Source: Candidatus Lloydbacteria bacterium RIFCSPHIGHO2_02_FULL_50_18 (GTDB lineage Bacteria; Patescibacteriota; Minisyncoccia; Phycocordibacterales; UBA6899). Taken from it: a stretch of 64,000 bases of DNA. Where the stretch lies: positions 138,840 through 202,839 of the forward strand of contig MHLM01000001.1 of the NCBI GenBank assembly GCA_001821395.1. The letters are read 5' to 3'. A model generated the notes under the pieces. That model had not been told where the DNA came from. It saw only the letters and a program-made list of their open reading frames with translations, and searched no databases. Numbering within the stretch: the stretch's first letter is position 1; every line of letters begins with the position of its first letter. Of the stretch, positions 16,825-43,457 are shown one piece after another. The translations under genes and the position numbers were made by a program.

Positions 16825-18924
16825 CTAAATAGCACCACTCTTACATTGCTTACATAAGTCACGTACATTCTCGGGAACATAATCACACGACGGTGCGAGT
16901 TTGAAATTCTCGCAGACATTTGCGGGCATTCCGCCACCCGACGCGCCAGCAGGAGGCATCATACCGGTCGGAATTCCTGCGGGAAGCTCTCCGCTCTTTG
17001 GAACTCCCTCGGGACGATAACCTGCTTCGGGGATGCCCTCCTTAGGAATACCCGCTGGCATTCCGGCAGGTCTAAAACTCTGCATGCACTCAGCGATAAA
17101 CGGCTGTACGTCTTCCGGTCCTCGTATTGTAGAAACATCACCGATCTTCGACTTGATACAGTCACGCATTTCCGCTGGCGCCTGCTCGAGCATCTTATCC
17201 ATTATTGCAGTCGCATTAGCCGCACATGATTGAAATGCATTCCCCATGTCGGGAGAAAGCTCGATGCCGTCTCCATTCATGATCTTTTCTACGACATCTT
17301 TTCCAAGTTTCTCTTCGATACATGCGCGCATTTCCGGCGGCATCTTCTCAAGACCTTCGCGCGCCTGTTGCATTCCGCTCTCACGCATGGACTCAAAACA
17401 CTTTCTCACGATATCTCCGCTTTGCGCATCCATTTCCCCACCCGAAAGCATCTTATCGAGCCCGCTCGACCCAAGCCCTTTTTCGATACAGGCTTTTGCC
17501 TCGGGTGTTGCGATATCCATCGCTGCACTTATCTTTTCTTTTATCTTAGGCATCATATCTGCCATGCAACCCTTGATCAACTGACCCATATTTTGTGTGG
17601 GCATGAACGTACCTTCTGATATCTTTGCCAGCGCTTCTTCTCCTAATTTTTCCTTTAGGCATACACGCGCTTCTTCAGGAAGCTGCGGCAAACCGGCACG
17701 CAATTGACCCATTCCATCTTTGATCTCTTTCAATTGCTCGGCTGGAATGAGGCCATACTTTTCGGCAAACTTAAAACATTCTTCCTGGTGCGACGTATCA
17801 TTACAATACGCCTCACAAGTTTCACGAGAACGGCACCCACCGGGACCCTCTCCGCCGGTCTTCCTCGCCATCTCGGCATCTTCCTTTGAAATGAGCCCTG
17901 CTTTCTCGGCGAAGTTCACACATTCATCGGCATGATCACTTTCGGAACAATATGCTTCACAAAGCGCTTTTGTTGTGCACTTTCCGGGAGTTTCACCCGA
18001 CTTCATAAATGGGAGTACTCTGCGCGACTCTGCGACATCTTTTGGATCAATGAACCCTGCTTTCTCGGCAAACGTGAGACATTCATCAGCATGGGTCGTA
18101 TCAGCGCAATATGATTCACATGATTTTTTGTCTGTGCAGCCACCCGGAAGCGTCGCGCCTTCTGCAAGTACTCTGGATATCCGTTTCGCGTCCTGCAATA
18201 CATCTTTCGGTATCAGGTTGTGTCGTTCTGCAAATAAGAGGCATTCATCCAAATGCGCGACTCCATTGCAGTACGCCTCGCATGTTTTTTGGTCCTTACA
18301 TGCACCGGGACCGTCTCCTCGGAGAACATCGGCAAACTCCCTCGCGCGAGCAGCCTCTTCCTTTGAGATCATGCCATTTTCTTCCGCATAATCCGTACAC
18401 GCTACGATGTGCGCCTTGTCATCACAGTACGTCTTGCAGGACGACTGGTCCTTACAATTTCCGAGCTTAGTGATGGGAAATTTATTCTTCTCAGTTTCCG
18501 ATCGCTGCAGATGCCCGACCGCACCAAACACACTATCGGTCACGACACCGTCATTGGTGAACGTATACACGCGCCCCCACAAATTCAACCTCATATCATC
18601 GGGACGCTGCGTCTGATACGAAGTGGAATATATCCCTTTTGTACCCTCGTTGAAACCACTGACGCTCCAGTTCATGTCGGCGGCAGTGTATCGAATCGTA
18701 TATATTTTTCCTGCCATGAGCGTTCCCATGGGGTCGCTCGAACCCTTCCAGCCGGAATCATCAAAATTGGCTGTATCAAAATTCACGTAAAATGTTTTTC
18801 CCGACTTGATGTACGACTGCCATGGCCCGAGTTCGGGTGCCGCAAACGCAACGATCACCGAGCTCATGAATATTCCCGCACAAACGATCAGCACTGCAAT
18901 GTGTCCTGCGAGCACATTCTTCAT
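16825..18924 (-). CDS. secreted cysteine-rich repeat protein (five tandem Cx5-6Cx3Cx7-8C...ECxxFAEKxGLI modules, then helical Cys-containing repeats)
   Basis: Signal peptide MKNVLAGHIAVLIVCAGIFMSSVIVAFAAPE, N-terminal beta-rich region, then repeats GxCKDQxxCExYCxxxxHxxECxxFAEKxGLIxxxD. Tracker ORF extends upstream to 19107; start at 18924 (alternative 18939) preferred. Confidence 0.6.
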   Translation of the reverse strand: MKNVLAGHIAVLIVCAGIFMSSVIVAFAAPELGPWQSYIKSGKTFYVNFDTANFDDSGWKGSSDPMGTLMAGKIYTIRYTAADMNWSVSGFNEGTKGIYSTSYQTQRPDDMRLNLWGRVYTFTNDGVVTDSVFGAVGHLQRSETEKNKFPITKLGNCKDQSSCKTYCDDKAHIVACTDYAEENGMISKEEAARAREFADVLRGDGPGACKDQKTCEAYCNGVAHLDECLLFAERHNLIPKDVLQDAKRISRVLAEGATLPGGCTDKKSCESYCADTTHADECLTFAEKAGFIDPKDVAESRRVLPFMKSGETPGKCTTKALCEAYCSESDHADECVNFAEKAGLISKEDAEMARKTGGEGPGGCRSRETCEAYCNDTSHQEECFKFAEKYGLIPAEQLKEIKDGMGQLRAGLPQLPEEARVCLKEKLGEEALAKISEGTFMPTQNMGQLIKGCMADMMPKIKEKISAAMDIATPEAKACIEKGLGSSGLDKMLSGGEMDAQSGDIVRKCFESMRESGMQQAREGLEKMPPEMRACIEEKLGKDVVEKIMNGDGIELSPDMGNAFQSCAANATAIMDKMLEQAPAEMRDCIKSKIGDVSTIRGPEDVQPFIAECMQSFRPAGMPAGIPKEGIPEAGYRPEGVPKSGELPAGIPTGMMPPAGASGGGMPANVCENFKLAPSCDYVPENVRDLCKQCKSGAI

Positions 18925-18943
18925 GTGAAAATTTTTCATATCG

Positions 18944-19231
18944 CTAGAAAGGATTCTGATAAGTGTCGGTATACGGATTGACCGTTTTTTCGAACGGATT
19001 CGTATCAGGCATCTTTTCGACTGGATTGGATGCACCAGTTTTTTGATAAATATCTCCACCAAAAGATTCGGCGGGTACCGCCTCTGCCGGTGTGGCATTT
19101 GTATCACTTCCTGATAATGTGTTGTCGGTCCCCTTTTGAGAAGTACCGAAATAAAACCAAAACATAAACCCTAAAATGACGGCGAACACGAGCGCGGCAA
19201 GCGCAAGTAGTACATTTTTTTTCATGATCAA
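18944..19231 (-). CDS. small secreted or membrane-anchored hypothetical protein
   Basis: MIMKKNVLLALAALVFAVILGF signal anchor. A8 tract within codons 4-6. Confidence 0.4.
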   Translation of the reverse strand: MIMKKNVLLALAALVFAVILGFMFWFYFGTSQKGTDNTLSGSDTNATPAEAVPAESFGGDIYQKTGASNPVEKMPDTNPFEKTVNPYTDTYQNPF

Positions 19232-30619: not shown

Positions 30620-32347
30620 TCATTCATTTCCCATCAATTCGTTTATTTTAGCCGAAGTGGTTTTACCAACATATCCGGTCCCCCTAACAAGACCCCAGGG
30701 CGCTAAAACATCTTCGGTATATTTTTCTTGGAATTTTATAACTGCTTTATAAGTCAAGAGGCCGAAATAATCAGTTTCCTTACCCGGAGAGCCAACACCC
30801 GAATCAGCCAATCGAGTATCGGGGTCGGAATTGAGGAAAATTTGCAAGCGTTTTATGTCTGCATTTGTTTGTCGGTATTGTCGGTATTGAGTAAATGGGT
30901 TAGTAAATGGCAAAATATTTATTCGCAAATTTTCCGTTACAGTAGTACCCGATCTTAGAACGATTATGCTTGAAGCAGTATCTGATGATCTGCCGTAGGC
31001 AGTGTAAAATTTAACATAAACGGTATATTGTCCATCCGGACAGATTAGATTTTTAAGTGTACCGCCAAATTTTGAGCATAAGTCCCATAGCTTGAAGGCG
31101 ACATAATCTTCTCGGCTGGCATCAGTGAAATCTCCAGTCATTGAAATCGCCAATTGCTTGATGTCCATTCCCGCATTAAAACCAAGTATGACATTTCTAT
31201 TTGACGTTGTGCTTGATCCGGAATTTACAAAAACCTTAAATCCACCTGTCGGCGTTATCGGCAAATTACTCCAACCTGCTGGCATACCACCTCCCCCACT
31301 TGAAGTTACAGCAGGAGTTACTAAGACGGCGTCCCAAATCAAAGTAAAATTATGAGAGTTGGAATTTCCGACGTTATCTGAGGCAGTAAAACTGATTACA
31401 TAAGTTCCGTTAGTATCGACTGAGATAGTTGTGCTCGACGCGGTACCGTCTCCAAACGTTACCGCACCAGGTCCTGAAACTTTTGCCCACTGATAAGTTG
31501 AAGCGTTCATATCGCTCCCGGAATCTGAAGCTGCAGCGACTTGAGTAAATGTAGCTCCTTTATTTTGATCATCTCCAGCACTAATGGTGGGATTTTGTTT
31601 ATCAATTTTTATGATATTTGACGATTCTGTGTTCTCAATATTCCCTAAATTATCTACTGAGTAGTACCTTATATATTGCTGACAACTAGAACCTGAGTCA
31701 CACGACAAACTAACACTTGTTCCTTCAGTGGTTGGCACGCAGCTATTATTAGTGTCAACGCAATAATATGTATGCGCTATTCCGCTTCCGCTATTATCAG
31801 ACGGGTTCAAATTAATAGTAAGATCTGAACTATGCCAATTATCATCAGCATTATCGGTTGTAGTTGGAGACGTATTTCCCACTACAATCGATTCATTAAA
31901 TGAAACGCTCCAATCGTAAAGGGGCAGTCCGGTACTGCCTGAAGATGGCGATACGCTCGTATCTGTATCTCGAATATTACCACCTACGGCAGTAGCATCG
32001 CCGGCTTGTGCGCACCAAGATGCAACAACATAGCAACTCCAGGCGTATCTCAAATGTTGATCTGTGCCAGTCGGCGTATCACTTAGAGTAATTTTTACTT
32101 GACTGTTATTATTTATAAGTTCTACTGAATCTATTGAAACACTATTGCCACCAGCCTGTGTAAATTCAAACCCATAATCAGGACGCTCCGCAACGTTGGC
32201 AGTATCAATAGCTAATGTTCCATAAGGGATATTATAATTGGCGATTATTACGTTACTCGATCTCAAAATCGATGATGGCATGAGGGGATTCCAAGTCTGT
32301 CCCTCAAACAATACTTTATCCATAACTTTTGCAAACATCTCTCCCAT
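30620..32347 (-). CDS. C-terminal portion (575 aa) of a large surface protein: SASA/esterase-like segment, Ig-like repeats, C-terminal peptidoglycan-binding domain. Separated from its N-terminal portion by a frameshift in an A8 tract.
   Basis: PG_binding_1-like C-terminus (IKRLQIFLNSDPDTRLADSGVGSPGKETDYFGLLTYKAVIKFQEKY). ATG lies inside the homopolymer context CAAGAAAAAAAATGGGAG. Confidence 0.6.
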   Translation of the reverse strand: MGEMFAKVMDKVLFEGQTWNPLMPSSILRSSNVIIANYNIPYGTLAIDTANVAERPDYGFEFTQAGGNSVSIDSVELINNNSQVKITLSDTPTGTDQHLRYAWSCYVVASWCAQAGDATAVGGNIRDTDTSVSPSSGSTGLPLYDWSVSFNESIVVGNTSPTTTDNADDNWHSSDLTINLNPSDNSGSGIAHTYYCVDTNNSCVPTTEGTSVSLSCDSGSSCQQYIRYYSVDNLGNIENTESSNIIKIDKQNPTISAGDDQNKGATFTQVAAASDSGSDMNASTYQWAKVSGPGAVTFGDGTASSTTISVDTNGTYVISFTASDNVGNSNSHNFTLIWDAVLVTPAVTSSGGGGMPAGWSNLPITPTGGFKVFVNSGSSTTSNRNVILGFNAGMDIKQLAISMTGDFTDASREDYVAFKLWDLCSKFGGTLKNLICPDGQYTVYVKFYTAYGRSSDTASSIIVLRSGTTVTENLRINILPFTNPFTQYRQYRQTNADIKRLQIFLNSDPDTRLADSGVGSPGKETDYFGLLTYKAVIKFQEKYTEDVLAPWGLVRGTGYVGKTTSAKINELMGNE

Positions 32348-34350
32348 TTTTTTTCTTGGGTATTCACGTCCATATGGAGCTTGTCCGACCGATAATGATA
32401 TTGATACTTTGGCTGGACCAAAATAATTTTTCCGGGATTATCTATATGCGCGTTTAATTGTGCTTCAGCTATTTCCCCCGTTGGCGCGGAATTCATTTGA
32501 TTTATAAATAATGGGATAGTGTCGTTACGGCTAGTCAGAGTATTAAGATCGGTTTCATAATCCAACTGCCATTCTTCAAGATAACTTTTATAATTTGCTC
32601 CGGCACCACCCACATAATCACTTTCTCCGTGAATTGAAGTAACTGCGATGGGTCGATACAGCTCGCCTAGCGTACTCTCAACGTAAGTTTTAGTTACACT
32701 TGCCTGTGTCATACCCTTGTTATACCAAGATGTCCCCTTTTTTAAACCACTGTAGTTAGTTCCACCATGTGCATGGAGGCCAACGACAATTGGACTGAGA
32801 AGATCTTCATACGCATGAAGGCTATTGGCCATTCCTGATGAGATTGTTTCCACATTACCGCCCTCTCCTTGCCCAGACTCAATTAATGGTATGAGCGGAG
32901 CAGCTGTTCCTTCAACTCCGGGGGTAAGCATAAGATTATTATAAGGCTGCGTAACGCTTATAGGCGGTGAAGCATAATAAACTACGGCCAGACTTTGCCC
33001 CGTTGACAATATCTGATAGTAGGTTGTTTGCTCATTTACCGCGAAGGAAACAGTCCCGGAATTATTTGTAAGAGCAGGAGTTGCTGACACGCTTATTATA
33101 TGAGGAGACCCACTCGTACTTGTAGGTGTATAGGTGAATGTTTTTGCATCTGACGAACCGGACCACGACAACGAAGTTGGCGCAAACGTTCCGGCACCAG
33201 TTGATGACGATGTAATCGTGCCGGTATATTCGCCATCAGGCGTCACAATAAAATTACCGGATGCTGTAGCCATCGTGCCAGACGACGGGCCGGCAAAAGT
33301 AAATGATGTAGCGGGTGGCGCAAGGGTGACGACTGAAAATTCAGAACTGTCTGCGGTTGCAGGGACGCCATCGGTAACCCTGAGCTTGTAATAATAAATC
33401 GTAGCGGGAGATAGTCCGGTATCTGATAATGTGAGCGATGTTTGTCCGCTTAAAATATTCCCAACACCCGGCGTAAAACCGCTGCTTATGCTACGGTACC
33501 ACTGATAAATATAGGGTGCTATTCCTCCTGTTGCTTCCGAAGATGAAAGATCGATACTTGAATCTGTTTTCTCCATTAAACTAATTGAGCCGGCGCTAAA
33601 AGTAGAAAACGGATATTCAAGCCCTGTGCCCGAATTGTATAAACTCGTGATCTCATCTGGAGTTAGTATTTTTTTCCAAAAACCAACAGAATCAATGCGC
33701 CCGTCCAAATACATTGTAGCACCAGAAGCCTGAAATCTCCCGATTGTAAATGCTGCGCTAGTATTTGCCGGCTCGGAACCGGCGACGCTTGTATTGGTAT
33801 ACGTATTATTAACAGTTATGGTATTAGTATGAGTGGTAGCATTGTGGCTACATGTGAGAAAATACCATTGGCCAATCTGGACTCCCCCCGTTGGAGTCAC
33901 ATATGCATCTACCGATGGAAAAGTAGAACAGCGAAACGTGTCGGAACTAACACCGTAATACAAAGCATATTCTCCGGTGCTGCCATATTTTCCAACAAAC
34001 GTCATATTTGTTGATTTGGTATCAAGATAGACCCATGCAGAAATAGTAAAATCTATACCGCCTATACTCAAACTGGGATTATCAACGATGCTTAAATATT
34101 CTGAGTTAGCCATAGTTAACTGCGCAGAATTTCCAAGTTTGCCAACTCCTTGAGTCACCGTATTGTTGTCGGTCAGATTATTTGAACTAACACTATCTGC
34201 TCGCGTACCACTTACCTCATCTAATTTCCAATAAGAAATAAGTGATGTGGATAAATCCGTTGCAAAAACATGAGAGAAAAATTGTGTGTACAACGACACC
34301 GAAATTAAAAGCAGGGCAAATATTTTAAAATTTTTTCGAAAGGTTTTCAT
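32263..34350 (-). CDS. N-terminal portion (695 aa) of the same surface protein: signal peptide, LamG/ConA-like lectin domain, Ser/Thr-rich Ig/FN3-like repeats, start of an esterase-like domain
   Basis: Signal peptide MKTFRKNFKIFALLLISVSLYTQFFSHVFA. LamG-like block (LISYWKLDEVSGTRADSVS...TISAWVYLD...MYLDGRIDSVGFW). Last about 28 codons are out-of-frame read-through after the A8 tract. Confidence 0.6.
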   Translation of the reverse strand: MKTFRKNFKIFALLLISVSLYTQFFSHVFATDLSTSLISYWKLDEVSGTRADSVSSNNLTDNNTVTQGVGKLGNSAQLTMANSEYLSIVDNPSLSIGGIDFTISAWVYLDTKSTNMTFVGKYGSTGEYALYYGVSSDTFRCSTFPSVDAYVTPTGGVQIGQWYFLTCSHNATTHTNTITVNNTYTNTSVAGSEPANTSAAFTIGRFQASGATMYLDGRIDSVGFWKKILTPDEITSLYNSGTGLEYPFSTFSAGSISLMEKTDSSIDLSSSEATGGIAPYIYQWYRSISSGFTPGVGNILSGQTSLTLSDTGLSPATIYYYKLRVTDGVPATADSSEFSVVTLAPPATSFTFAGPSSGTMATASGNFIVTPDGEYTGTITSSSTGAGTFAPTSLSWSGSSDAKTFTYTPTSTSGSPHIISVSATPALTNNSGTVSFAVNEQTTYYQILSTGQSLAVVYYASPPISVTQPYNNLMLTPGVEGTAAPLIPLIESGQGEGGNVETISSGMANSLHAYEDLLSPIVVGLHAHGGTNYSGLKKGTSWYNKGMTQASVTKTYVESTLGELYRPIAVTSIHGESDYVGGAGANYKSYLEEWQLDYETDLNTLTSRNDTIPLFINQMNSAPTGEIAEAQLNAHIDNPGKIILVQPKYQYHYRSDKLHMDVNTQEKKWERCLQKLWIKYCLRDRLGIPSCHHRF

Positions 34351-34780: not shown

Positions 34781-35767
34781 ATGACTATTTCTGAAAGCAC
34801 CTTAGACAAGGTCGGCGCAATGGGCGCTGCATTCTCTCTCATTGACCTCATTCGCGGGTTCAGCCATGGAGGCGTTCACGTCGGCGGAGGCACGGGCGGA
34901 GTAGGTTTTCTTACTTCTCTTCTCACTGTGCTCGTCAGAGTATGGGAAGAAAAAGGCGGGAGCATGAAAGACGAAAGCGAAATGCTCGAGTCAATGTTTG
35001 CAAACCCGCAAGCAAAGAATGAAAAACTCACACCGCAGGAACGTACCAAGATCGCGGCCGTCATCAAGGCGATGACTCCGGCAGAGCAGAAAGTGTTCCG
35101 CATCGCAATTTTTGTGATGGACCCCGATGTGACGACGATCGAAGTACCGGAGAAAAAAGACAAGGACGGCAAAGTCATCGCTGTAGCCGGAAAACGAACC
35201 GAAAAAACGGGAATTGATCCTCGGGTCAATGTCCTGCACGGTATCGCCGAGCACGTCCATGACAACCTCGATAACGTCACCGAAGTGGCCGAATTACTTC
35301 GCGGTACGGGGGCGCTGGGTGGAAACAACGAGGCACTTAAGTTTCTCGTCAAGGTACAAGTAGAGCTCAAAAAGCTTCTTTGCACGTTCTTCGGGGTCGA
35401 ATCCGTCGATCTTATCACCTTCGACATGGTCAAAGAAAAGGCAACCGTGCTCATCGGAAATATCGGTGTGCCGAATGCCAATTTGCCGGGACCTCCGGTC
35501 GGTCCGCTCATGCGAGTGGGTCGCCTCATCACGCCGGGGAGTTATCGCAATGCTCCTGCATCGAAAAGCGTGAAGTCCAAGAAAGAGGTAAGGTCGACGA
35601 GCCTGCTGAAGATGTTTGCAGTGGTAGCATGTATCACCGGCATCCTCGCTTACGGCTTGTACTTCGGAGCTTCAAAGTACCGAGCGTACCAAAGAGATAC
35701 TGAGATTGACAACATCATCAACGCGTATCAACCGACCAAAACGTCGGCTGAGCAGCCGATGAAATAG
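34781..35767 (+). CDS. hypothetical protein with C-terminal membrane anchor
   Basis: 328 aa. Gly-rich N-terminus, charged central region, single C-terminal TM (LLKMFAVVACITGILAYGLYFG). Confidence 0.45.
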   Translation: MTISESTLDKVGAMGAAFSLIDLIRGFSHGGVHVGGGTGGVGFLTSLLTVLVRVWEEKGGSMKDESEMLESMFANPQAKNEKLTPQERTKIAAVIKAMTPAEQKVFRIAIFVMDPDVTTIEVPEKKDKDGKVIAVAGKRTEKTGIDPRVNVLHGIAEHVHDNLDNVTEVAELLRGTGALGGNNEALKFLVKVQVELKKLLCTFFGVESVDLITFDMVKEKATVLIGNIGVPNANLPGPPVGPLMRVGRLITPGSYRNAPASKSVKSKKEVRSTSLLKMFAVVACITGILAYGLYFGASKYRAYQRDTEIDNIINAYQPTKTSAEQPMK

Positions 35768-35785: not shown

Positions 35786-37408
35786 ATGAGTTTATGGAAA
35801 AAAGCAGGCTACGGCCTTTTGGGAATTTCGGCCATTCTCGGTCGAAGGACCCTCTCGTCCGCATACGACCGCCAGATCGAGGGCATTACCGACGCGCATA
35901 TCAAATATGTCGGCGGCGCAATGCTCTTCGGAGTTTGCGGTCTCGTGCTTAACTTCATCTTTTTGATGAATGGGATGCACGGCATGCAAACAGCGCTCTT
36001 CGGAGTTATCTGTCTTGCGTCACTGTATTACATGATCGCGCCAAAAATGAGCATTCCGCTCATCATCGCGGCCGCAGCGGTTCATGCCGGAGAGGCGAAA
36101 GATCAAGCGAAGCTCAAACTGCTCGGCGACGGAGTGAAAGACATTGTCAATCTGGCAAGTCTGGCACTCTTTTGGATCGGTGTGTACATCGTCGGAACGA
36201 TCATTGCCCCATGGGACTTGAGTTGGGAATTCTTTCTTTTCCTTCACATGTTCATCATCATGGCACTACTGCTCTTTGTGAGCGGCAAGGCATCGGTCAG
36301 CACGAAAGTGTACGATAATTGCTTCAAGTTCACCATTGCTGTGATCGTTGTCAGCGTACTCACGATCGCAATCGGACGTGAGCACGTAGGACCATTATGG
36401 GCGCAATTCTCCGCAAGCAAAACTTCTCGTATCGAGGCCAAGTTGAACGCAAGTTCGATTAAGACCGCAGACGAAGCGTCAGCCGAGTGGATTGAGAAGA
36501 ATGTTCACATCGATAAGCGGACCGGTGAGCAATTCGTCATCGTTACCGACAAGGTCACCGGCAAACAAAAACCGGTCGCCGCACAGCCCTACATTGAGAG
36601 GGAGAAGCAACGCAGGAACGAAACCATCCGCTCGGTCACGGAAAAAGGCGGAAAGACCAATGCGACAAACACGAGACAGGATAATAAGGGAGGTTACTTC
36701 TCTTATGAATACTGGAACGCAAAAGCGCATGAATGGTCGGAATCCTGGGGGGTACCACTCTTCGTCGGCATCATTGCAGTATTGGCAATGGTCGTGGCAC
36801 ACTTCATTCCCGTCATCTGGGGAGGAAAGAAACTCTTTGGAAAGTCAGGTACTGAAACGGCAAAGGTTGTTAGTACGCCGAAGGAGTCCGGAAACGGACT
36901 TGTTGCCACATTACTCGTTGCGGGTGCTCTCGTGTATATTGGCTTTCAGTATACGCAAGGTGAACGAGGAGCAAAAGCCAATATGGCACCGCAAACAAGC
37001 GTTGCGACATATGCCACACTAAAGAAAGGAGATGCCGGTCTGTGGATGGCCTACTGGAGTGACATGAACGGGCACTCCATTTACAGACTTCCTCAAGATA
37101 GATGGCATGGGCGAACTGTTTCGCTTTTGCCAGGCAGCTCTGTTTCGAATGTGTCCGACATCACGCTTGTTTTTGATCCTAATGATCCAAGTACCAATAT
37201 CTCATTTAACGGAGATTGCGTTGCCGGTAGCTACGATATTCAAAAAGAGTGCGTCGGATACTGGAGAACAGAAGTGGGGTCCGGTACTTTCAGGCTTGAA
37301 TGGTGGGGAAGCCAGGAAACATTCCACATTGCACTGTTTCCGGGACAACTGCCGGCAAAAGGACAGGCACAAGCCATCAAGGAGATACGCTTCGTAAAAA
37401 AACAATGA
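35786..37408 (+). CDS. polytopic membrane protein (about 8 TM, charged central loop and about 150-aa C-terminal extracytoplasmic beta-rich domain). Architecture resembles Gram-positive VirB6-like (TcpH/PrgH-type) proteins.
   Basis: 540 aa. TM clusters at the N-terminus and around residues 310-380. C-terminal domain rich in W/Y/G. Similarity is architectural only. Confidence 0.4.
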   Translation: MSLWKKAGYGLLGISAILGRRTLSSAYDRQIEGITDAHIKYVGGAMLFGVCGLVLNFIFLMNGMHGMQTALFGVICLASLYYMIAPKMSIPLIIAAAAVHAGEAKDQAKLKLLGDGVKDIVNLASLALFWIGVYIVGTIIAPWDLSWEFFLFLHMFIIMALLLFVSGKASVSTKVYDNCFKFTIAVIVVSVLTIAIGREHVGPLWAQFSASKTSRIEAKLNASSIKTADEASAEWIEKNVHIDKRTGEQFVIVTDKVTGKQKPVAAQPYIEREKQRRNETIRSVTEKGGKTNATNTRQDNKGGYFSYEYWNAKAHEWSESWGVPLFVGIIAVLAMVVAHFIPVIWGGKKLFGKSGTETAKVVSTPKESGNGLVATLLVAGALVYIGFQYTQGERGAKANMAPQTSVATYATLKKGDAGLWMAYWSDMNGHSIYRLPQDRWHGRTVSLLPGSSVSNVSDITLVFDPNDPSTNISFNGDCVAGSYDIQKECVGYWRTEVGSGTFRLEWWGSQETFHIALFPGQLPAKGQAQAIKEIRFVKKQ

Positions 37409-37429
37409 ACGTTCTTTTGCTCACAAGAG

Positions 37430-37464
37430 CAAAGACCAAGGCATGATTGCCTTGGTCTTTTTTT
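37430..37464. terminator. bidirectional intrinsic terminator between convergent gene 35786..37408 and the pilin array
   Basis: AAAGACCAAGGCATGATTGCCTTGGTCTTTTTTTT. Confidence 0.65.
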
Positions 37465-37492
37465 TAAAAAACAAAGTATTCAGACCTACGCC

Positions 37493-37849
37493 CTAAATAG
37501 GAACAGTTGTTTGAATAGTAGGCGCGGTACCCAGTCCGCCGAGCGGTGCAAGTCCCAATTCTGTTTGGATGAATCCGATGATCGACCAGAGCGCTACAAT
37601 CACAAAAATACCCACCATGCCCCATACGAGAAACATCCTCCCCTCCTGCACCGCCTTCTCATCATCGGCATGCCAAATGAATTTTACGACACCCCAAAAA
37701 AATACCGCAACCGCACAACCCAACAGTACGGGCATGATGGTCTGCATGAGATTAATGAGATCATCCATGATGGTGATCACCGACGTCTGAGCAAGTGCAA
37801 ATGTTGGTAAGAAAAAAAACGTACCGAGAATAAAAGATCGTTTAGACAT
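37493..37849 (-). CDS. VirB2/TrbC-like pilin paralog 1 (subfamily B)
   Basis: Sec signal peptide (FALAQTSV). Two-helix hairpin with FFWGVVKFIWHADDEKAVQEGR loop motif. Confidence 0.6.
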   Translation of the reverse strand: MSKRSFILGTFFFLPTFALAQTSVITIMDDLINLMQTIMPVLLGCAVAVFFWGVVKFIWHADDEKAVQEGRMFLVWGMVGIFVIVALWSIIGFIQTELGLAPLGGLGTAPTIQTTVPI

Positions 37850-38162
37850 AATTCATCAGCGTCATATCGCCGCCTATTGAGCTAATAAGGAATCGCATGA
37901 TACCAAACACGGCAACCATGATGAACATGCCAATGATACCCCATATCATACCGAGACGCCCCTTATCGCGCATCTCCGCATTATCCGGATTCCAGATATA
38001 CGCGACCACTCCGTAGATAAAATAGACGGTCGCGAGTGCAAAGAGCAAAGCGATGATAGGATTCAAAATATACGTCGAGATGTTGCCGACGAAAGTGAGC
38101 ACCGATGCGGGAATCGGGGGCGCAGCTGCTTCTGCTACGCTTGGAAAAAAAATGTTTAACAT
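37842..38162 (-). CDS. VirB2/TrbC-like pilin paralog 2 (subfamily B)
   Basis: Start at MLNIFFPSVAEAAAPP (tracker ORF is extended upstream). Motif YFIYGVVAYIWNPDNAEMRDKGR. Confidence 0.55.
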   Translation of the reverse strand: MLNIFFPSVAEAAAPPIPASVLTFVGNISTYILNPIIALLFALATVYFIYGVVAYIWNPDNAEMRDKGRLGMIWGIIGMFIMVAVFGIMRFLISSIGGDMTLMNYV

Positions 38163-38211
38163 GAATAAATTATAGCATCTCAATAAAAATTGACTATCCG
38201 AATGAGCAAAC

Positions 38212-38245
38212 AAAAACCCCCGAGAACATTCTCGGGGGGTTTTTG
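38212..38245. terminator. intrinsic-terminator-like hairpin inside the pilin array (between paralogs 3 and 2)
   Basis: AAAAACCCCCGAGAACATTCTCGGGGGGTTTTTG. Confidence 0.55.
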
Positions 38246-38265
38246 TAATCCTATTTTTATCAGGA

Positions 38266-38622
38266 CTAGACTCCAGGAACAGCAAATGCTGGTGGTGTTG
38301 ACGTGGTTATTGTCCCAGTCAATCCAAGCTGAGTCTGAGCCCAACCAAGAATACCCCAGAGAGCGACCATGACAAAGATCGCAACCATACCCCAGATCAT
38401 AAGCGTCTTACCCTGCTCCTTTGCGGCTTCATCGCTTGCATTAGCGATATATTTGACCAAGCCCCAAAAGAACGCAACGACCGCAAGACCCATGAGTAAT
38501 GGGATCAAAAGCGAGATAATACCCTGAACGCTGTTTACGAGATCGGCGATACCGGTGAGCACGGTTGCTGCAGAAGCAACTGCGGGACCCACAAGCATCA
38601 TTCCGATGATAAATTTCTTCAT
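38266..38622 (-). CDS. VirB2/TrbC-like pilin paralog 3 (subfamily B)
   Basis: Start at MKKFIIGMMLVGPAVASAATV. Motif FFWGLVKYIANASDEAAKEQGK. Confidence 0.6.
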   Translation of the reverse strand: MKKFIIGMMLVGPAVASAATVLTGIADLVNSVQGIISLLIPLLMGLAVVAFFWGLVKYIANASDEAAKEQGKTLMIWGMVAIFVMVALWGILGWAQTQLGLTGTITTSTPPAFAVPGV

Positions 38623-38796
38623 AGATTTGATAATAATTAATAAATACACCGCCAAAACTATAACTTAATGCTATCGCACAAACCGATGTCAAGCAATAGA
38701 AAAAAAAGATACCTGTGGATTACTGTTTCCGTTACCCGGAATCACAAAAATCGACCTCTTCACATGCCTGATGATCATATTTTTGTACGATAAGAG

Positions 38797-39159
38797 CTAA
38801 TGGATGCCGCCAGTCGAATCCACATAATCCGGTGCGCCTCCCGGCATAATCCCAAATGTATCAACAAGAAGAATTCGCACTATTCCCCATACGGAGAAGA
38901 GCACGACGAACGCGATAATCCCCCAAATGATGAATTGCTTTCCTTTTTCACGTTCAACGGGATCGTTCGCATTACCGATAAATTTTACGACGCCCCAGAA
39001 AAAGAACATGATGGCAGCGATCCAGAAAAATTGTCCGGCCTTCACCAAAATATTGTAGACAAGCACCTCGAGGTCAAAGACGTCCGTGACTTGCGCGAAA
39101 ACAAGGGATGGAGTGCCAAGAAGCGTCGCAATACCGAACTGTTTGTTTATTGTTCTCAT
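38797..39159 (-). CDS. VirB2/TrbC-like pilin paralog 4 (subfamily B)
   Basis: Signal peptide (SLVFAQVTD). Motif FFWGVVKFIGNANDPVEREKGK. Confidence 0.6.
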   Translation of the reverse strand: MRTINKQFGIATLLGTPSLVFAQVTDVFDLEVLVYNILVKAGQFFWIAAIMFFFWGVVKFIGNANDPVEREKGKQFIIWGIIAFVVLFSVWGIVRILLVDTFGIMPGGAPDYVDSTGGIH

Positions 39160-39174
39160 GAAAATAAAAAATAA

Positions 39175-39519
39175 TTATGAGGGCGTACTCAAAAAAGGAA
39201 TACCGAACGAACCTCCAAAGAGTGTTGAATTCAAGATACCGATGAGTCCCCACATCCCAAGCACAACCGCGATACCGATGATGGCCCACAGCAGATAGGG
39301 CTTGATCTCTTCGCGCCTTTTCTCATTATCTGAATTCATCATATAGAGCGCGATACCATATACGAGTCCGGCGATAAGCGCGGCAAAGAAAATGGAGATA
39401 ATGTTCTTTAAGACTCCCAAGAGCAACTCGACGAAACTCTTGAAGTCCGTCGGCGTAGTAGCGGCAAAAGTAATAAGGGGGGAACAGAAGACTAGCGTCG
39501 CAAAGATGAATTTTTTCAT
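39175..39519 (-). CDS. VirB2/TrbC-like pilin paralog 5 (subfamily B, divergent)
   Basis: Start at MKKFIFATLVFCSPLITFAATTP. Motif LVYGIALYMMNSDNEKRREEIKP. Confidence 0.55.
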   Translation of the reverse strand: MKKFIFATLVFCSPLITFAATTPTDFKSFVELLLGVLKNIISIFFAALIAGLVYGIALYMMNSDNEKRREEIKPYLLWAIIGIAVVLGMWGLIGILNSTLFGGSFGIPFLSTPS

Positions 39520-39526
39520 ATACATA

Positions 39527-39865
39527 TTAAAATAATATCGCCGTACCATATACCATGTCTGCGATGACTTTTGCACCAAGGATAATGAGCCCGCCAACGA
39601 GTGTCCACGTGAGCCAGATCTTCGCCTTCGTCACCTGCGCTTCATCCCCCCCCGCGGTGACGAACTGAAAACCAGCATAAATAATACAGCACGCGAGCGC
39701 GGGTATGCCGACCAGCTGCATGATCTCGATCAGCCAATAGATAAAATCCTGAAGCGTAAGAATTGAGGGAGCCGGATTTGATAGCAGTGTCCATGATGCA
39801 GCAAGTGAAATTCTTGGTTGCGAGAGGGTGAGTGTGGCGAAAGATACTAAGGCTGTTTTTTTCAT
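39527..39865 (-). CDS. VirB2/TrbC-like pilin paralog 6 (subfamily A; closest to the canonical Gram-positive T4SS pilin motif)
   Basis: IYAGFQFVTAGGDEAQVTKAKIWLTWTLVGGLIILGAKVIA. Confidence 0.6.
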   Translation of the reverse strand: MKKTALVSFATLTLSQPRISLAASWTLLSNPAPSILTLQDFIYWLIEIMQLVGIPALACCIIYAGFQFVTAGGDEAQVTKAKIWLTWTLVGGLIILGAKVIADMVYGTAILF

Positions 39866-39884
39866 AAAGGTATTGGGATTCAGA

Positions 39885-40244
39885 TCACAATGAGCTAATA
39901 GTCGCCTGTATCGCTGCGGCGATCACTTTCGCACCGAGCAGCACGAGTGCCCCCAACAGTGTCCACTTGAAGGTGGTACGAGCCTTCGCAATCTGCGCCT
40001 CATTGTCCCCCGCGGTCACAAAGAGAAATCCGCCATAAATGATGAACATCACAATAATGGGCACTCCGATAAGAAAAACGAGGTCGACGATAGCGAGCAG
40101 GAGATCGGGAATAGAGGTAATCCCACCGTAAGTGATCGGGTTTACATAGCTTGACGAAGCAGCAGACGCCGTATGCGTACCCATTAAAAGTCCGAGCGTT
40201 GTCAGGTTTAATGGTTTTGTTATGTAGTGTTGCATAAGTATCAT
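39885..40244 (-). CDS. VirB2/TrbC-like pilin paralog 7 (subfamily A)
   Basis: IYGGFLFVTAGDNEAQIAKARTTFKWTLLGALVLLGAKVIAAAIQ. Start at MILMQHYITKPLNL chosen. Confidence 0.55.
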   Translation of the reverse strand: MILMQHYITKPLNLTTLGLLMGTHTASAASSSYVNPITYGGITSIPDLLLAIVDLVFLIGVPIIVMFIIYGGFLFVTAGDNEAQIAKARTTFKWTLLGALVLLGAKVIAAAIQATISSL

Positions 40245-40248
40245 GAAT

Positions 40249-40722
40249 TTATGGCCCCAAGAAATTAAATGACGATCCGGTACCAAGGAAGAATTCGAGG
40301 ATGAAATTAACAGTCACCCACGCCGCAAGTGCGATAATGAGTCCCCAGAACACATTCAAGAAAACGTCGTGCGCCTGTTTGACTTGGCCTTCATTGCCAC
40401 GATTGGTCACGTAGAGAAAACCGGCATAGGCGAACATGACCGCACCCAATGGTGCTGCGATCTTGAAAATGAGGAAATTGATCACATTCTGCGCAGTCTC
40501 GATCACGTCGTTAAAATAACATTCCTCATGATTACCCGGGGTGGTAGCATTTGATGCCCAGACCAAGGGGCTCGGATCTTTGACCGCACCGTCTCCATTA
40601 ATGTCAAATCCGCAAGGAATGATCGTTGACGGTGAAGCTGCGAATACAGAGAATGGGGTCACGAGTATCAAAACACCGAGGAATATCGCAGAAACAAATC
40701 GATGAGTGACACTGTTGTGCAT
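40249..40722 (-). CDS. VirB2/TrbC-like pilin paralog 8 (subfamily A, with an extra Cys-containing N-terminal extracellular segment)
   Basis: FAYAGFLYVTNRGNEGQVKQAHDVFLNVFWGLIIALAAWV. Signal peptide VFAASPS. Confidence 0.6.
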   Translation of the reverse strand: MHNSVTHRFVSAIFLGVLILVTPFSVFAASPSTIIPCGFDINGDGAVKDPSPLVWASNATTPGNHEECYFNDVIETAQNVINFLIFKIAAPLGAVMFAYAGFLYVTNRGNEGQVKQAHDVFLNVFWGLIIALAAWVTVNFILEFFLGTGSSFNFLGP

Positions 40723-40737
40723 AGCAATAAGTGAAGT

Positions 40738-42057
40738 TTAGTAGCGAGACAAAGCAACGTCAAGTTCCGTGTTCAATTTTGCAACAGCCGTAGCGGTGTC
40801 ATTCCTCCCTGACGAGACTGATTCGACCATCGCTTGGAATGCTTTGTCGGAAATTTCCGGCTTTGGATCAAGCCAGGTACGTGCACGAATGGCCGCTTCG
40901 AAAAATACCGCCATCGCCGCATCGGTCGGAGGAACCGCGAGCAGGTCTCTTCGAACGGGGGGCAGATTGTACGCCGCAGCAAAGTCTTTTGCGGGATTCG
41001 CATCAAAGAGCAGTTTCTGCATAGCAACAAAGGCGGTGCTTTTATTTTTGGAGGTCTTCAGCACAGCGAGACCATGCACCTTTGCAAATGTTACCTCAGC
41101 CGTCGTTCCTCGCGGTTCCGGAACCTGTGCGACCGCAAAATTCAGGTGTGGATTTTTTGCCTTGATCTCGCTATATGCACTCGCGTAATCGAAATATACC
41201 GCGAGATTTCCGTTGATGAATTCATTGCGCGAATCACTGCGCGCACGACTCCATGTAAAAATATTTTTGAGCGGATTCGAAAAATCCATAAAGAAACGGA
41301 GGGCAGAAACAACATCCTGATCGGCAACAAATTGACCGGCATCGGATTTTGCAACCATGCTCTTGGGTGTTTTCCCATTCATCTTGACGATAGGGTTACC
41401 CACCTGAAGAAAGAGCATCGCAAGAATGTCTTTCGCATGGGTCACATTGACATACTCCCCAAATGAAATTGCGCTCTGAACAAGTTCGGAGGTACGTACG
41501 TCGCGTTTTGTGAATTTGGGGGTAAGCGTCAAGAACTCATCCCAGAACTTGGGCACTTCGGTAACCGATGCATTGGTAAAAATATCTCTGTTCCAATACA
41601 TGACCATCGGGTCGATCGCAAACGGGAGCGCGACCAGCCCCTCATCGCGCATATATATCTCCGATGCCTGAATGAAGCTCGATGAAAAAAGACCCGGTGA
41701 AACAGCAGTGTACGGTACCAGCTCGATCTTATCGAAATGGCGCAGAATGAGATCATCGGGCAAAAGCAGAACATCGGGGCCCGTTCCGCTTGCGAGCGCC
41801 TCAACGATATCACTATCGAAATTTTTCGGATCATGAAATTGATACGAAATACTAAAATTCTTTTTATATATATCGTTAAATTTCTTGATCGTCTCCGAAA
41901 GACCCGCGGTGTCCTGAAAAGTACCCCATATGACGACGTTCCCCTGAGCCCCAGGAACGGTCGTGTCACCCTTTTTAGGATCCGACGTTGCAAACACAAG
42001 AAGACCGACAACGGCCATTATTCCAAAAAAAGTAAGAAGAATCGTCTGAAATTTCAT
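40738..42057 (-). CDS. ABC-type extracellular solute-binding protein (family 1, sugar-type), orphan: no permease or ATPase adjacent
   Basis: 439 aa. N-terminal signal anchor, periplasmic-binding-protein-like composition. Stop is 16 nt upstream of pilin paralog 8. Confidence 0.6.
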   Translation of the reverse strand: MKFQTILLTFFGIMAVVGLLVFATSDPKKGDTTVPGAQGNVVIWGTFQDTAGLSETIKKFNDIYKKNFSISYQFHDPKNFDSDIVEALASGTGPDVLLLPDDLILRHFDKIELVPYTAVSPGLFSSSFIQASEIYMRDEGLVALPFAIDPMVMYWNRDIFTNASVTEVPKFWDEFLTLTPKFTKRDVRTSELVQSAISFGEYVNVTHAKDILAMLFLQVGNPIVKMNGKTPKSMVAKSDAGQFVADQDVVSALRFFMDFSNPLKNIFTWSRARSDSRNEFINGNLAVYFDYASAYSEIKAKNPHLNFAVAQVPEPRGTTAEVTFAKVHGLAVLKTSKNKSTAFVAMQKLLFDANPAKDFAAAYNLPPVRRDLLAVPPTDAAMAVFFEAAIRARTWLDPKPEISDKAFQAMVESVSSGRNDTATAVAKLNTELDVALSRY

Positions 42058-42072
42058 AGGTACAACGTAGCG

Positions 42073-42633
42073 CTATGCCCGCATCTCCGTACTATTCACC
42101 TGATAAAGACCTTTCCGAAATATAAGACCATAATGAAAATTTCCCGCATTGACTGTTTTTTCAAAGGTGAAATTCAGCGATTCAACGAGCTTTCGCGCTT
42201 CTGTTTCAGGAAACACTTGTTCGGTCGTCGGTCCCATATTATTGAAAGACGCCGTCCAGTCGATCAGCATGAGTCTTCCACCCTGCTTGAGTACTCGGCG
42301 TGCCTCATCCAGAACGTTTTTTTTATCGGATGCCTGAAAGAGCACGTTCGAAACAACGACGACATCGCATACCCCATCGCTCAATTTCGTCCCGCCCAAA
42401 AGTTCGACATCTCCCCAGAGAAATGAAACATTGCCGATGTGCTTTTCTTTACAGGTATTTTCGAGGCGCGTAAGCAAGTCCTTTTGCACCTCGATCGCGT
42501 ACACCTTCCCTGTTCCGTGCATGGCTTCTGCCGCAGCGATTGTATATGCACCCGACCCCGCGCCAAAATCTGCAACCACCAAATTATCGGCTAACCCTAA
42601 TTGTTCGATATTCTTCTCCGGTGCTGAAAACAT
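42073..42633 (-). CDS. class I SAM-dependent methyltransferase
   Basis: Motif I VADFGAGSGAYT, motif post-I/II pattern (VVVSNVLF...LKQGGRLMLID). Confidence 0.75.
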   Translation of the reverse strand: MFSAPEKNIEQLGLADNLVVADFGAGSGAYTIAAAEAMHGTGKVYAIEVQKDLLTRLENTCKEKHIGNVSFLWGDVELLGGTKLSDGVCDVVVVSNVLFQASDKKNVLDEARRVLKQGGRLMLIDWTASFNNMGPTTEQVFPETEARKLVESLNFTFEKTVNAGNFHYGLIFRKGLYQVNSTEMRA

Positions 42634-42722
42634 TCGTCAATTATAGCATTTTCTGAAGATATACGGGAAGCGCACAATCCCCACCTACATTGCTCCTGCT
42701 CTTTGGGGGCGTAGAACTTACC

Positions 42723-42977
42723 CTATCGATAGATATCATGAGTACCCACATCAAGATAATAGATGGCATCCTTTTCTTTTTTAATGATCACCCGATAGGT
42801 AAAGTTTGCGGAAAAGGCATACCAAGATCTGAATTTTCCATGAAGTTTGTGAAACTTCAAAGATTCAGCGTCTTTTTCTTTCTCAAATAAAGATACCGCG
42901 CGAAAGACGTCATTTTGCACTTCCTCGTCGCATTTTTTGAGTGAGCGAAGGAAGCGTGCCGTATAGAGATACAGCAT
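42723..42977 (-). CDS. type II toxin, RelE/ParE family
   Basis: 84 aa. Conserved R/K pattern and YRVIIKKEKDAIYYLDVGTHDIYR C-terminus typical of RelE/ParE. Preceded by antitoxin with a 1-nt gap. Confidence 0.7.
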   Translation of the reverse strand: MLYLYTARFLRSLKKCDEEVQNDVFRAVSLFEKEKDAESLKFHKLHGKFRSWYAFSANFTYRVIIKKEKDAIYYLDVGTHDIYR

Positions 42978-42978
42978 A

Positions 42979-43197
42979 TTAGAATTTCTTAAATAATTTC
43001 TTCAGGTCTCCTCTATACACGCGTCCGGCCTTAATGTCCGCCTCTGCTTCGTTGAGACGGCTCAGTGCGCGCTCCTCCTGCAATCGCCCAAGCGCAAAAC
43101 GCACGAGATGTGCTTTCGACTCACTCGTCCCCGCTCGTAACTCTTCTTCAATGAACGACTCCAGCTCTTTGGTGATCGGTACGGTAATTGTTGACAT
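42979..43197 (-). CDS. type II antitoxin (ParD/RelB-like ribbon-helix-helix)
   Basis: 72 aa, MSTITVPITKELESFIEEELRAG..., directly upstream of toxin. Confidence 0.65.
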   Translation of the reverse strand: MSTITVPITKELESFIEEELRAGTSESKAHLVRFALGRLQEERALSRLNEAEADIKAGRVYRGDLKKLFKKF

Positions 43198-43457
43198 GTA
43201 CTATATCCTAGTACTATCTGATAGTACTGTCAATATCACCTTAACTTTACTTTCATTCTTCACCAAACATGAATGAAGCGATCTGTGCGAGGAATTGGAG
43301 AATCTTTATATCGGCCAAATTATCTCAAGCTTGCAGATAGAGATGCAGTGCGAGGCAAAACAGAAATACGCAAGCAAGCCTTACTCAGAGTAAGGTGCAG
43401 CGCATATTTTTGTTTTAACAAAGCAATGCGCTCTATGTGCAAGCTTTTCTCTCCTGC

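Follow-up and report, generated by a model that had tools for sequence, protein, structure and literature searches.

Why should a bacterial chromosome carry eight tandem, divergent pilin-like genes joined to the genes of a methyltransferase (MTase) and a solute-binding protein (SBP), and what could such a set of proteins do together? We address this question for a stretch of 64,000 nucleotides (hereafter the window, whose own coordinates are used throughout) from the Candidatus Lloydbacteria genome RIFCSPHIGHO2_02_FULL_50_18, contig MHLM01000001.1, in which ten co-oriented minus-strand open reading frames (ORFs) span 37493..42633. Our analysis suggests that the locus is probably a vertically inherited pilin module of the chromosomal type IV secretion system (T4SS)-like apparatus of Patescibacteria, in a form typical of Paceibacteria; its bearer, a Lloydbacteria cell, is an ultrasmall member of Patescibacteria. 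The array itself is no discovery, as such arrays have been published; what seems to be new here is its pairing with an SBP and an MTase, and the recurrence of three pilin classes in the same order.

Eight homologs of T4SS pilins

All eight small genes exceed the gathering score of the Pfam family PF18895 (T4SS_pilin; 28.6-39.1 versus 26.6 bits), and when a hidden Markov model (HMM) built from the eight pilins was iterated over related loci and run on the 64-kb window, its only matches were the same eight genes. Their alignment displays a signal peptide ending in a conserved P....AxA, followed by two hydrophobic helices separated by a short charged loop, and in the AlphaFold2 (AF2) model of pilin 3 the signal peptide precedes a helical hairpin (residues 38-70 and 75-111, pLDDT ~90). 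Judged from their sequences, the eight genes encode VirB2-family T4SS pilin homologs, each with a signal peptide and a helical hairpin. This agrees with a first-pass annotation made without database searches, which had placed eight minus-strand pilin genes with a Sec signal peptide and a two-helix hairpin at 37493..40722. The module and its control elements are composed as follows, in the direction of transcription.

42073..42633, minus strand: class I S-adenosylmethionine (SAM)-dependent MTase, 186 amino acids (aa), first gene of the module; Pfam Methyltransf_31/25/11
40738..42057, minus strand: family 1 MalE-like SBP, 439 aa; Pfam SBP_bac_8/SBP_bac_1
40249..40722, minus strand: pilin 1, class C, 157 aa; PF18895 32.4 bits, TrbC 21.9 bits
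39885..40244, minus strand: pilin 2, class B, 119 aa from ATG 40244; loop IYGGFLFVTAGDNEAQIAKAR; PF18895 37.4 bits
39527..39865, minus strand: pilin 3, class B, 112 aa; PF18895 30.7 bits, TrbC 22.3 bits
39175..39519, minus strand: pilin 4, class A, 114 aa; PF18895 30.1 bits; NF045849 33.4 bits, under cutoff
38797..39159, minus strand: pilin 5, class A, 120 aa, closes the proximal transcription unit; PF18895 39.1 bits
38623..38796, minus strand: intergenic region of 174 nt with a conserved promoter region
38266..38622, minus strand: pilin 6, class A, 118 aa, predicted monocistronic; PF18895 30.3 bits
38217..38238, minus strand: intrinsic-terminator-like hairpin CCCCCGAGAATGTTCTCGGGGG with a T-run
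38169..38196, minus strand: promoter-like site before pilin 7 (TAGTCA, 16 nt, TGnTATAAT)
37842..38162, minus strand: pilin 7, class A, 106 aa from ATG 38162; PF18895 28.6 bits
37493..37849, minus strand: pilin 8, class A, 118 aa, overlapping pilin 7 by 8 nt; PF18895 33.4 bits
37431..37460, either strand: bidirectional terminator-like hairpin of 13 bp, common to the array and a convergent 540-aa gene

The start codons of pilins 2 and 7 were corrected by reading the sequence, the likely starts being ATG 40244 and ATG 38162. Pilin 3 matches OGZ05247.1 (A2845_02950) exactly, an entry that bears the UniRef name 'Conjugal transfer protein TrbC'.

The first-pass annotation had called the proteins TrbC/VirB2-like and had proposed a search against the Pfam T4SS pilin and TrbC models as a check. 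Eight of eight passed PF18895, and three window pilins matched TrbC (PF04956) weakly, all below threshold (best 22.3 versus 27.9 bits). Membership in the VirB2/TrbC-related T4SS family is thus upheld by PF18895 and by matches of orthologs, the TrbC gathering score being the part that the window copies do not reach. Among orthologs of the three classes described below, PF18895 and TrbC (E <= 1e-3) match 58 and 34 of 60 class B proteins (best TrbC E 1.8e-9) and 46 and 20 of 57 class C proteins, and for class A the counts are 59/60 with PF18895 and 1/60 with TrbC. The NCBIfam model NF045849, for pilin-like proteins of Mycoplasma integrative and conjugative elements (ICEs), is matched by all eight window pilins, all under its 40-bit cutoff, as well as by 51/60 class A (best E 1e-11) and 32/60 class B orthologs. 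Profiles of classes A and B are homologous to one another at 16% identity (hhalign probability 99.2%, E 1.5e-19). When the pilin profile was compared with sequences of the PDB, the best T4SS match was TraM (8cw4), which at E 0.22 is not significant.

A conserved MTase-SBP-pilin module beside gyrA

A scan of one genome per species yielded 80 loci with an SBP 36-76% identical to that of the window, carrying labels of Lloyd-, Nomura-, Yonath-, Wolfe-, Zambryski- and Taylorbacteria, Paceibacterota and others, and all their ORFs were scored, using a pilin HMM of our own together with the MTase, SBP and gyrA of the window. Pilins lie directly downstream of the SBP in 77/77 testable loci, the MTase lies directly upstream of it in 72 of the 73 loci where this could be tested, and gyrA is found further upstream in 44/51. 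The SBP has more than 1,000 relatives in total. Five metagenomic or genomic contexts (SBP identity 50-63%) display the order gyrA - MTase - SBP - 5 to 9 PF18895 genes, and a sixth Pfam-annotated context with the same layout was found starting from a pilin. In one locus (L007) the linkage to gyrA is broken, yet the MTase stays with the SBP. Because this synteny holds across loci, the SBP is an orphan with respect to transporters but a constant partner of pilins, and together SBP and MTase are conserved partners of the array across Paceibacteria rather than accidents of one genome.

Many of the genome records behind these loci, those of L020, L022 and L032 among them, are titled 'uncultured Candidatus Saccharibacteria bacterium' while showing the Paceibacteria-type gyrA-MTase-SBP-pilin synteny; such titles are probably generic or wrong.

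The space between gyrA and the MTase is occupied in the window by a pair of small minus-strand genes (42723..43197) encoding 84 aa, with a weak HigB-like match, and 72 aa. At the same spot relatives hold other insertions, namely Y1 transposases (L001 and L088) or a DUF1003 gene (L006), and from these differing contents the spot looks like an insertion hotspot.

In a Pfam scan that covered window ORFs of at least 150 aa, no member of the VirB4, VirB11, VirD4 or relaxase families was found, nor any ABC permease or ATPase (BPD_transp, ABC_tran). The adjoining 7.6 kb on the left and 5.9 kb on the right of the window also yielded none of these genes. The six annotated related loci likewise contain no T4SS core gene within 10 kb and no ABC permease or ATPase. 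The remaining genes of the window are those of an ordinary chromosome (serS, dprA, topA, relA/spoT, parB, alr, clpB, IF-2, gyrA, S1, hisS, ftsA/ftsZ, signal peptidase I and sortase). With these housekeeping neighbours, conserved synteny and the lack of a relaxase, coupling protein or VirB4 among the scanned ORFs, the first-pass annotation was right that this is not a conventional conjugative locus, as it was about the missing core genes and the missing transporter partners of the SBP.

A TraX-family gene (PF05857; L005 11411..12106) lies ~2 kb downstream of a nine-gene pilin array in a Paceibacterota genome. TraX is the F-pilin N-acetylase family.

Three pilin classes in a fixed order

Clustering of 448 pilins by normalised BLAST score separated groups of 273, 103 and 69 members, from which the classes were drawn. 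Their order after the SBP is always C, B, A, with no violation in 78 arrays. Each array has one class C, one or two class B and three to six class A copies (one, two and five in the window), the core pattern being C-B-A-A-A and that of Lloydbacteria-type arrays, including the window, C-B-B-A-A-A-A-A(-A). Where at least 5 kb was available, arrays mostly held five (21 loci), six (11) or eight genes (10). One array member on a Nomurabacteria-type contig is of double length (L088 10001..10744, P0121, 247 aa) and may be a fusion of two pilin units.

Class C pilins have a mature N-terminal extension with two invariant Cys residues (PCG...C), which in pilin 1 is ~45 aa long and precedes the helical hairpin; C42 and C73 of pilin 1 are invariant in 57 orthologs, and every class C member has at least two Cys in the extension. 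Class B, the most TrbC-like class, has a mature N-terminus with NP and the loop IYxGFLFVTAxGNE..KAK, and class A is recognized by the loop FxWGvxKfI..a.dE..rE.GK and a longer, variable C-terminal tail. Two subfamilies had previously been distinguished by their loops; both loop motifs are visible in the alignment, but the three copies then taken as canonical are one class C and two class B proteins.

Comparison of 11 eight-gene arrays showed that the best relative of a pilin stands at the same array position in 87 of 88 comparisons. Identity to orthologs in relatives is 38-81% for the pilins, 52-76% for the SBP, 64-76% for the MTase and 78-87% for gyrA. Within class A, conservation is highest at pilins 6 (45-78%) and 7 (54-81%), compared with 38-67% at positions 4, 5 and 8, pilin 8 itself (41-68%) being among the less conserved. 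Pilin 7 has a short, atypical signal peptide and the C-terminus ...MNYV, an ending shared by an ortholog in another locus (L089, described below). The window paralogs are mutually 18-44% identical.

The first-pass annotation had offered two views of the array, a multi-pilin system with accessory factors or a reservoir of variant pilin cassettes, and had suggested a search for recombination tracts among the paralogs. Comparison of the window copies at the DNA level gave no gene-conversion tracts; what DNA they share is no more than 76% identical over no more than 62 nt and falls within the loop-motif region. Orthology by position together with so little shared DNA is the signature of old, non-redundant subunits and not of cassettes or a recent amplification, and the occurrence of same-position orthologs without conversion tracts makes a cassette reservoir unlikely. 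These sequences are better read as a fixed multi-subunit set, which also fits the ordered classes and the conserved SBP and MTase partners.

Transcription layout and a candidate major pilin

The proximal part of the locus is compact: the MTase gene is followed after a 15-nt gap by the SBP gene, and this after another 15-nt gap by five tightly packed pilin genes, before the 174-nt interval. The SBP stop had earlier been put 16 nt before the next pilin gene; near-contiguity stands, the distance being one nucleotide shorter. The distal part consists of pilin 6, a hairpin with a T-run, a TGnTATAAT site, two overlapping pilin genes and the bidirectional terminator. The terminator-like hairpin reported at 38212..38245 proved real and was located at 38217..38238, with a stem of 9 bp, seven of them G-C pairs, and T-runs on both strands; a hairpin occupies the same inter-gene position in 9 related arrays. 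The promoter-like site at 38169..38196 matches the consensus at 10 of 12 positions and has an extended -10. A search of 37300..43300 against Rfam gave only sub-threshold matches, on the terminator hairpins.

Within the 174-nt interval lie the 10-mer TAATCCACAG (38713..38722), a -35-like TTGCTT, a -10-like TAGCAT and TATAGTTT. Alignment of 9 orthologous regions shows TAATCCACA, TTG, a TATCAT core and AGTTT to be invariant or nearly so, and the order upstream of gene 6 is TAATCCACA(G), ~15 nt, a -35-like TTGC, a -10-like TATCAT and TATAGTTT. In the 64 kb of the window this 10-mer has a single occurrence. Among the 'C B B' arrays that were examined, 14/19 have it at the equivalent place, and in seven more distant loci it precedes gene 5 of 6; upstream of the orthologous pilin it is invariant in relatives whose proteins are only ~45-78% identical. 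Lying ~15 nt before a conserved -35/-10-like pair, it is a candidate regulator-binding site.

The spacing of the genes is itself conserved. In eight-gene arrays gaps are small through gene 5, long before gene 6, and followed by a terminator after gene 6 and an overlapping pair, and in five-gene arrays the long gap comes before gene 4. The locus already mentioned for its pilin 7 ortholog (L089 10001..13764; JGI 3300025173 Ga0209824_10000025) carries three distal pilins, orthologs of window pilins 6-8, which adjoin clpB and are separate from the rest of the array, standing alongside homologs of the 540-aa and 328-aa genes that border the window array. This arrangement indicates that the array is separable exactly at the internal promoter gap, and that the two membrane proteins without assigned family travel with the distal pilin unit. 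The distal class A genes thus form separate transcription units as predicted from the sequence, and the monocistronic promoter-plus-terminator layout singles out 38266..38622 (pilin 6) as the foremost candidate for a major pilin with high expression.

Accessory proteins

The SBP, identical to OGZ05250.1 (A2845_02965), scores 71.9 bits with SBP_bac_8 and 59.9 bits with SBP_bac_1, which agrees with the ABC-type SBP annotated at first pass. Its AF2 model (pLDDT 91.6) consists of an N-terminal transmembrane (TM) helix (residues 2-24), a linker and a MalE-like fold. Foldseek returned 4r9g, 4rjz and 5f7v at E ~1e-22 (TM-score 0.64-0.72, 17-19% identity), and the nearest solved SBP structures bind manno-, malto- or cyclo-oligosaccharides or sucrose. 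Many invariant Trp, Tyr, Asp and Glu residues are kept. Two residues of the TM helix, M1 and F3, never vary, and conservation is at least 90% at Q4, F11, V16 and F22; so high a degree is unusual and suggests a role beyond export targeting. The MTase, equally recognized beforehand as a class I SAM enzyme, has neither a signal peptide nor a TM segment and is cytoplasmic; its nearest PDB sequence is the uncharacterised 3dh0.

Two plus-strand genes converge on the array.

35786..37408, plus strand: 540-aa protein, family unassigned, predicted to have 7 TM segments and converging on the array
34781..35767, plus strand: 328-aa protein, family unassigned, lying upstream of the 540-aa gene; its N-terminus is Gly-rich and it has a single TM segment, at the C-terminus

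Neither has a Pfam family or a PDB sequence match, whether searched alone or as a profile. An exhaustive search of 1.84 billion proteins found only 27 representatives of the 540-aa family, and a word-index search found 3. In L089 a 537-aa homolog (26% identity, E 1e-49) lies beside the three distal pilins, and a homolog of the 328-aa protein (45% identity, E 1e-88) lies beside the 537-aa gene. Six other close loci (L008, L013, L015, L020, L021 and L024) also have the 540-aa gene where their array ends, and the 328-aa gene is present in 5 (L008, L015, L016, L020 and L024). Linked as it is to distal pilins in the Lloydbacteria lineage, the 540-aa protein is possibly an accessory of the array. 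That it could be VirB6-like was considered as a possibility and found no support.

Relation to published arrays and other pilin systems

A large share of bacterial diversity belongs to Patescibacteria, which are dependent on host cells, and theirs is the first T4SS shown to be essential for its own bearer, the Saccharibacterium S. epibionticum. In that organism a series of pilins lies inside the essential T4SS cluster (Wang et al. 2023, Cell, PMC10633639). A search of 3,035 Patescibacteria genomes with PF18895 and PF04956 subsequently turned up 441 arrays, spread over 383 assemblies and each holding 2-11 pilin genes (mean identity 25%), for which host-range or antigenic versatility was proposed (Quinonero-Coronel et al. 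2025, Microb Genom, PMC12102498). Lloydbacteria assemblies are part of that dataset, and its Table S1 has entries in which such assemblies are listed as VirB4 = Yes, including RIFCSPHIGHO2_01_FULL_49_22 and 54_11. In enrichment cultures of Patescibacteria with methanogens, T4SS pilins ranked among the unknown genes with the highest expression (PMC10936435), and a 2025 review called a possible pilus 'intriguing' and speculated on uptake from the host (PMC12857230).

Eight tandem VirB2-like pilins are accordingly a known kind of thing, and the novelty that the first-pass annotation saw in the array itself falls away (PMC10633639; PMC12102498). The window array shares with the published ones PF18895, tandem divergent paralogs, a chromosomal location, the lack of a relaxase and a monoderm, host-dependent bearer. 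It differs in being joined to an MTase-SBP pair beside gyrA. As far as the published descriptions go, arrays of S. epibionticum and Microgenomatia lie within the virB4 cluster or a few genes from it, whereas that of the window is tens of kb away. The SBP, the MTase and the fixed C-B-A order are unmentioned in PMC12102498, and no account of a lone class A gene flanked by a terminator was met there, though no search aimed at it was made. A Paceibacteria-wide MTase-SBP-C-B-A module that adjoins gyrA and is detached from VirB4 would seem to be a variant not described before.

In conjugative systems a single pilin gene within a complete mating-pair formation (MPF) operon is the rule. The TrbC/VirB2 pilins of such systems (PF04956; RP4 TrbC, Agrobacterium VirB2, pKM101 TraM) have the same Sec signal peptide, two hydrophobic helices and short charged loop, and their model is reached by the class B and C orthologs counted above, unlike the window copies, which stay under its gathering score. 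The best NCBIfam relatives of class A are the Mbov_0395/MMCAP2_0565 proteins of Mycoplasma ICEs (NF045849), which come from a similarly monoderm, MPF-FATA-type background, in keeping with the ancestry proposed for the Patescibacteria T4SS (PMC12102498); they differ in residing on mobile ICEs, and the window scores stay under 40 bits. The VirB2 paralogs of Bartonella and Anaplasma, as cited in PMC12102498, are a further case of tandem amplification and divergence in host-dependent bacteria. Those are thought to provide antigenic or host-range variation, whereas the window paralogs are ancient, ordered and without recombination tracts. Lastly, the window SBP shares the fold and Pfam families of family 1 SBPs (CpMnBP1 4r9g, Atu4361 4rjz, Lmo0181 5f7v), but has a conserved N-terminal TM anchor in place of a lipobox and no adjacent permease or ATPase, and is always followed by T4SS pilin genes.

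A proposed role for the module and its rivals

We propose that one operon supplies a cytoplasmic SAM MTase, a membrane-anchored MalE-like SBP and then pilins of classes C, B and A. The pilins would be exported by Sec and cleaved at AxA by signal peptidase I, leaving a hairpin in the membrane with its charged loop facing the cytoplasm, as their sequence and VirB2/TraA biology suggest. A VirB4-containing core encoded elsewhere would then extract and polymerise them into a pilus or conduit at the contact with the host. The paralogs would be specialised, non-redundant subunits instead of variant cassettes: pilin 6 may be the abundant major pilin, and the operon copies of classes C, B and A may serve as low-abundance priming, base or tip subunits. 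Class C would be disulfide-capable or capped, possibly a tip or initiator, class B would be the TrbC-like form and class A the bulk, with exposed variable tails. The SBP is envisaged as a dedicated extracytoplasmic partner, most likely binding a host-derived or host-surface glycan at the site of the pilus or T4SS. Although speculative, the MTase could modify the cytoplasm-facing loop of the pilins before assembly. An ordered set of three pilin types across Paceibacteria argues against simple antigenic variation and suggests an appendage of complex composition, and the SBP with its ligand offers a handle to test whether the apparatus is used in sensing host material, in adhering to it or in importing it.

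Several points weigh against this proposal. The T4SS core is absent from the 64-kb window as well as from ~7.6 kb beyond its left end and 5.9 kb beyond its right, and the link to a T4SS is made here by homology and by a published yes/no table, not by synteny. A pilus of these proteins has been observed in no Patescibacterium and is described as a possibility (PMC12857230). No window copy reaches the gathering level of TrbC PF04956, and fold searches with the pilin model retrieve generic helical hairpins (ATP synthase subunit c, designed proteins), not T4SS pilins specifically. The choice of pilin 6 as candidate major pilin comes from the gene layout only. We infer the roles of the SBP and MTase, and for the latter the only similarities are to small methyltransferases that are uncharacterised and to enzymes of arsenite or UbiE type.

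Among other explanations, the module might be a device for SBP-dependent uptake, in which the SBP hands a host oligosaccharide to a conduit of hairpin proteins, with or without a T4SS core, making it an importer and not a pilus for secretion or adhesion. SBPs are hallmarks of import; this one keeps the oligosaccharide-SBP fold and its invariant residues, stands without a permease or ATPase partner, both in the window and in the six related loci with annotation, and is coupled to pilins in every testable locus of a module that is far from VirB4, while the review cited above (PMC12857230) speculates that the Patescibacteria T4SS or pilus takes up host molecules. Against these points, the module encodes no energy-coupling component and an SBP that feeds a VirB2-type assembly has no known precedent; the gene of a permease could lie in another part of the genome, and proteins of the SBP fold also serve as adhesins or receptors. 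We consider this explanation unlikely, and give the same small chance to its stronger form, in which the module would be a new SBP-dependent acquisition machine whose anchored SBP recognises a glycan of the host cell wall, or one released by the host, and couples it to a three-class pilin conduit. If so, the T4SS-derived pilus of Patescibacteria, at least in Paceibacteria, would import from the host rather than export.

It is improbable, too, that the paralogs form a reservoir of variation, used singly or recombined to alter host range or evade recognition as has been proposed for Bartonella and Anaplasma. Such a role, offered for Patescibacteria arrays in PMC12102498, would suit the great divergence of the paralogs (18-44% identity), the change in class A copy number from 3 to 6 between lineages, and the longer variable class A tails, which would be surface-exposed. 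The class order, however, is fixed in 78/78 arrays, and the 87/88 same-position matches were obtained with relatives whose gyrA is only 78-87% identical; there are no shared DNA tracts able to mediate recombination, most of the genes are predicted to be co-transcribed with tiny or overlapping gaps, and the pilins evolve not much faster than the SBP. By this evidence a variation reservoir is largely refuted.

It is very improbable that the locus is an ordinary conjugation module, belonging to a mobile conjugative element or left over from one: homology to TrbC/VirB2 and to Mycoplasma ICE pilin-like proteins would fit, as would the toxin-antitoxin-like pair in the window and the Y1 transposases in relatives between gyrA and the module, but neither window nor flanks contain a relaxase, coupling protein or VirB4, the surroundings are housekeeping genes with the same neighbours (gyrA and a Lactamase_B_3 gene) in dozens of species, and the GC content is even throughout the region. 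Scarcely credible as well is a mimicry of the pilin hairpin by unrelated small membrane proteins such as holins or bacteriocin immunity proteins, for although fold searches cannot separate this hairpin from many others, the HMM matches to T4SS pilin families are consistent, homologous arrays lie inside T4SS clusters of other Patescibacteria, and no holin or immunity family was reported by Pfam at E <= 1 or NCBIfam at E <= 0.1, in searches that left out PHROGs.

Other genes of the window

A 760-aa minus-strand ORF at 16825..19107, which has no Pfam match, was considered as a VirB4 candidate and rejected, as it is a Cys-rich repeat secreted protein. It carries ~5 repeats of the Cys motif C..C..YC....H..EC..FAE..G.I, then helical repeats and a Pro/Gly-rich tail, and is secreted or anchored.

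Two large, overlapping secreted proteins are encoded on the minus strand at 30620..34350, ~3 kb from the end of the array. One, of 695 aa, has a Laminin_G_3 domain and a weak SASA esterase match, and the other, of 575 aa, a PKD domain and a weak peptidoglycan-binding match; both are likely surface or host-interaction proteins. The sortase gene stands at the right end of the window (63397..63999), and beyond it (L091 1310..4512) follow two Ice_binding-domain proteins, one of them with a peptidoglycan-binding domain.

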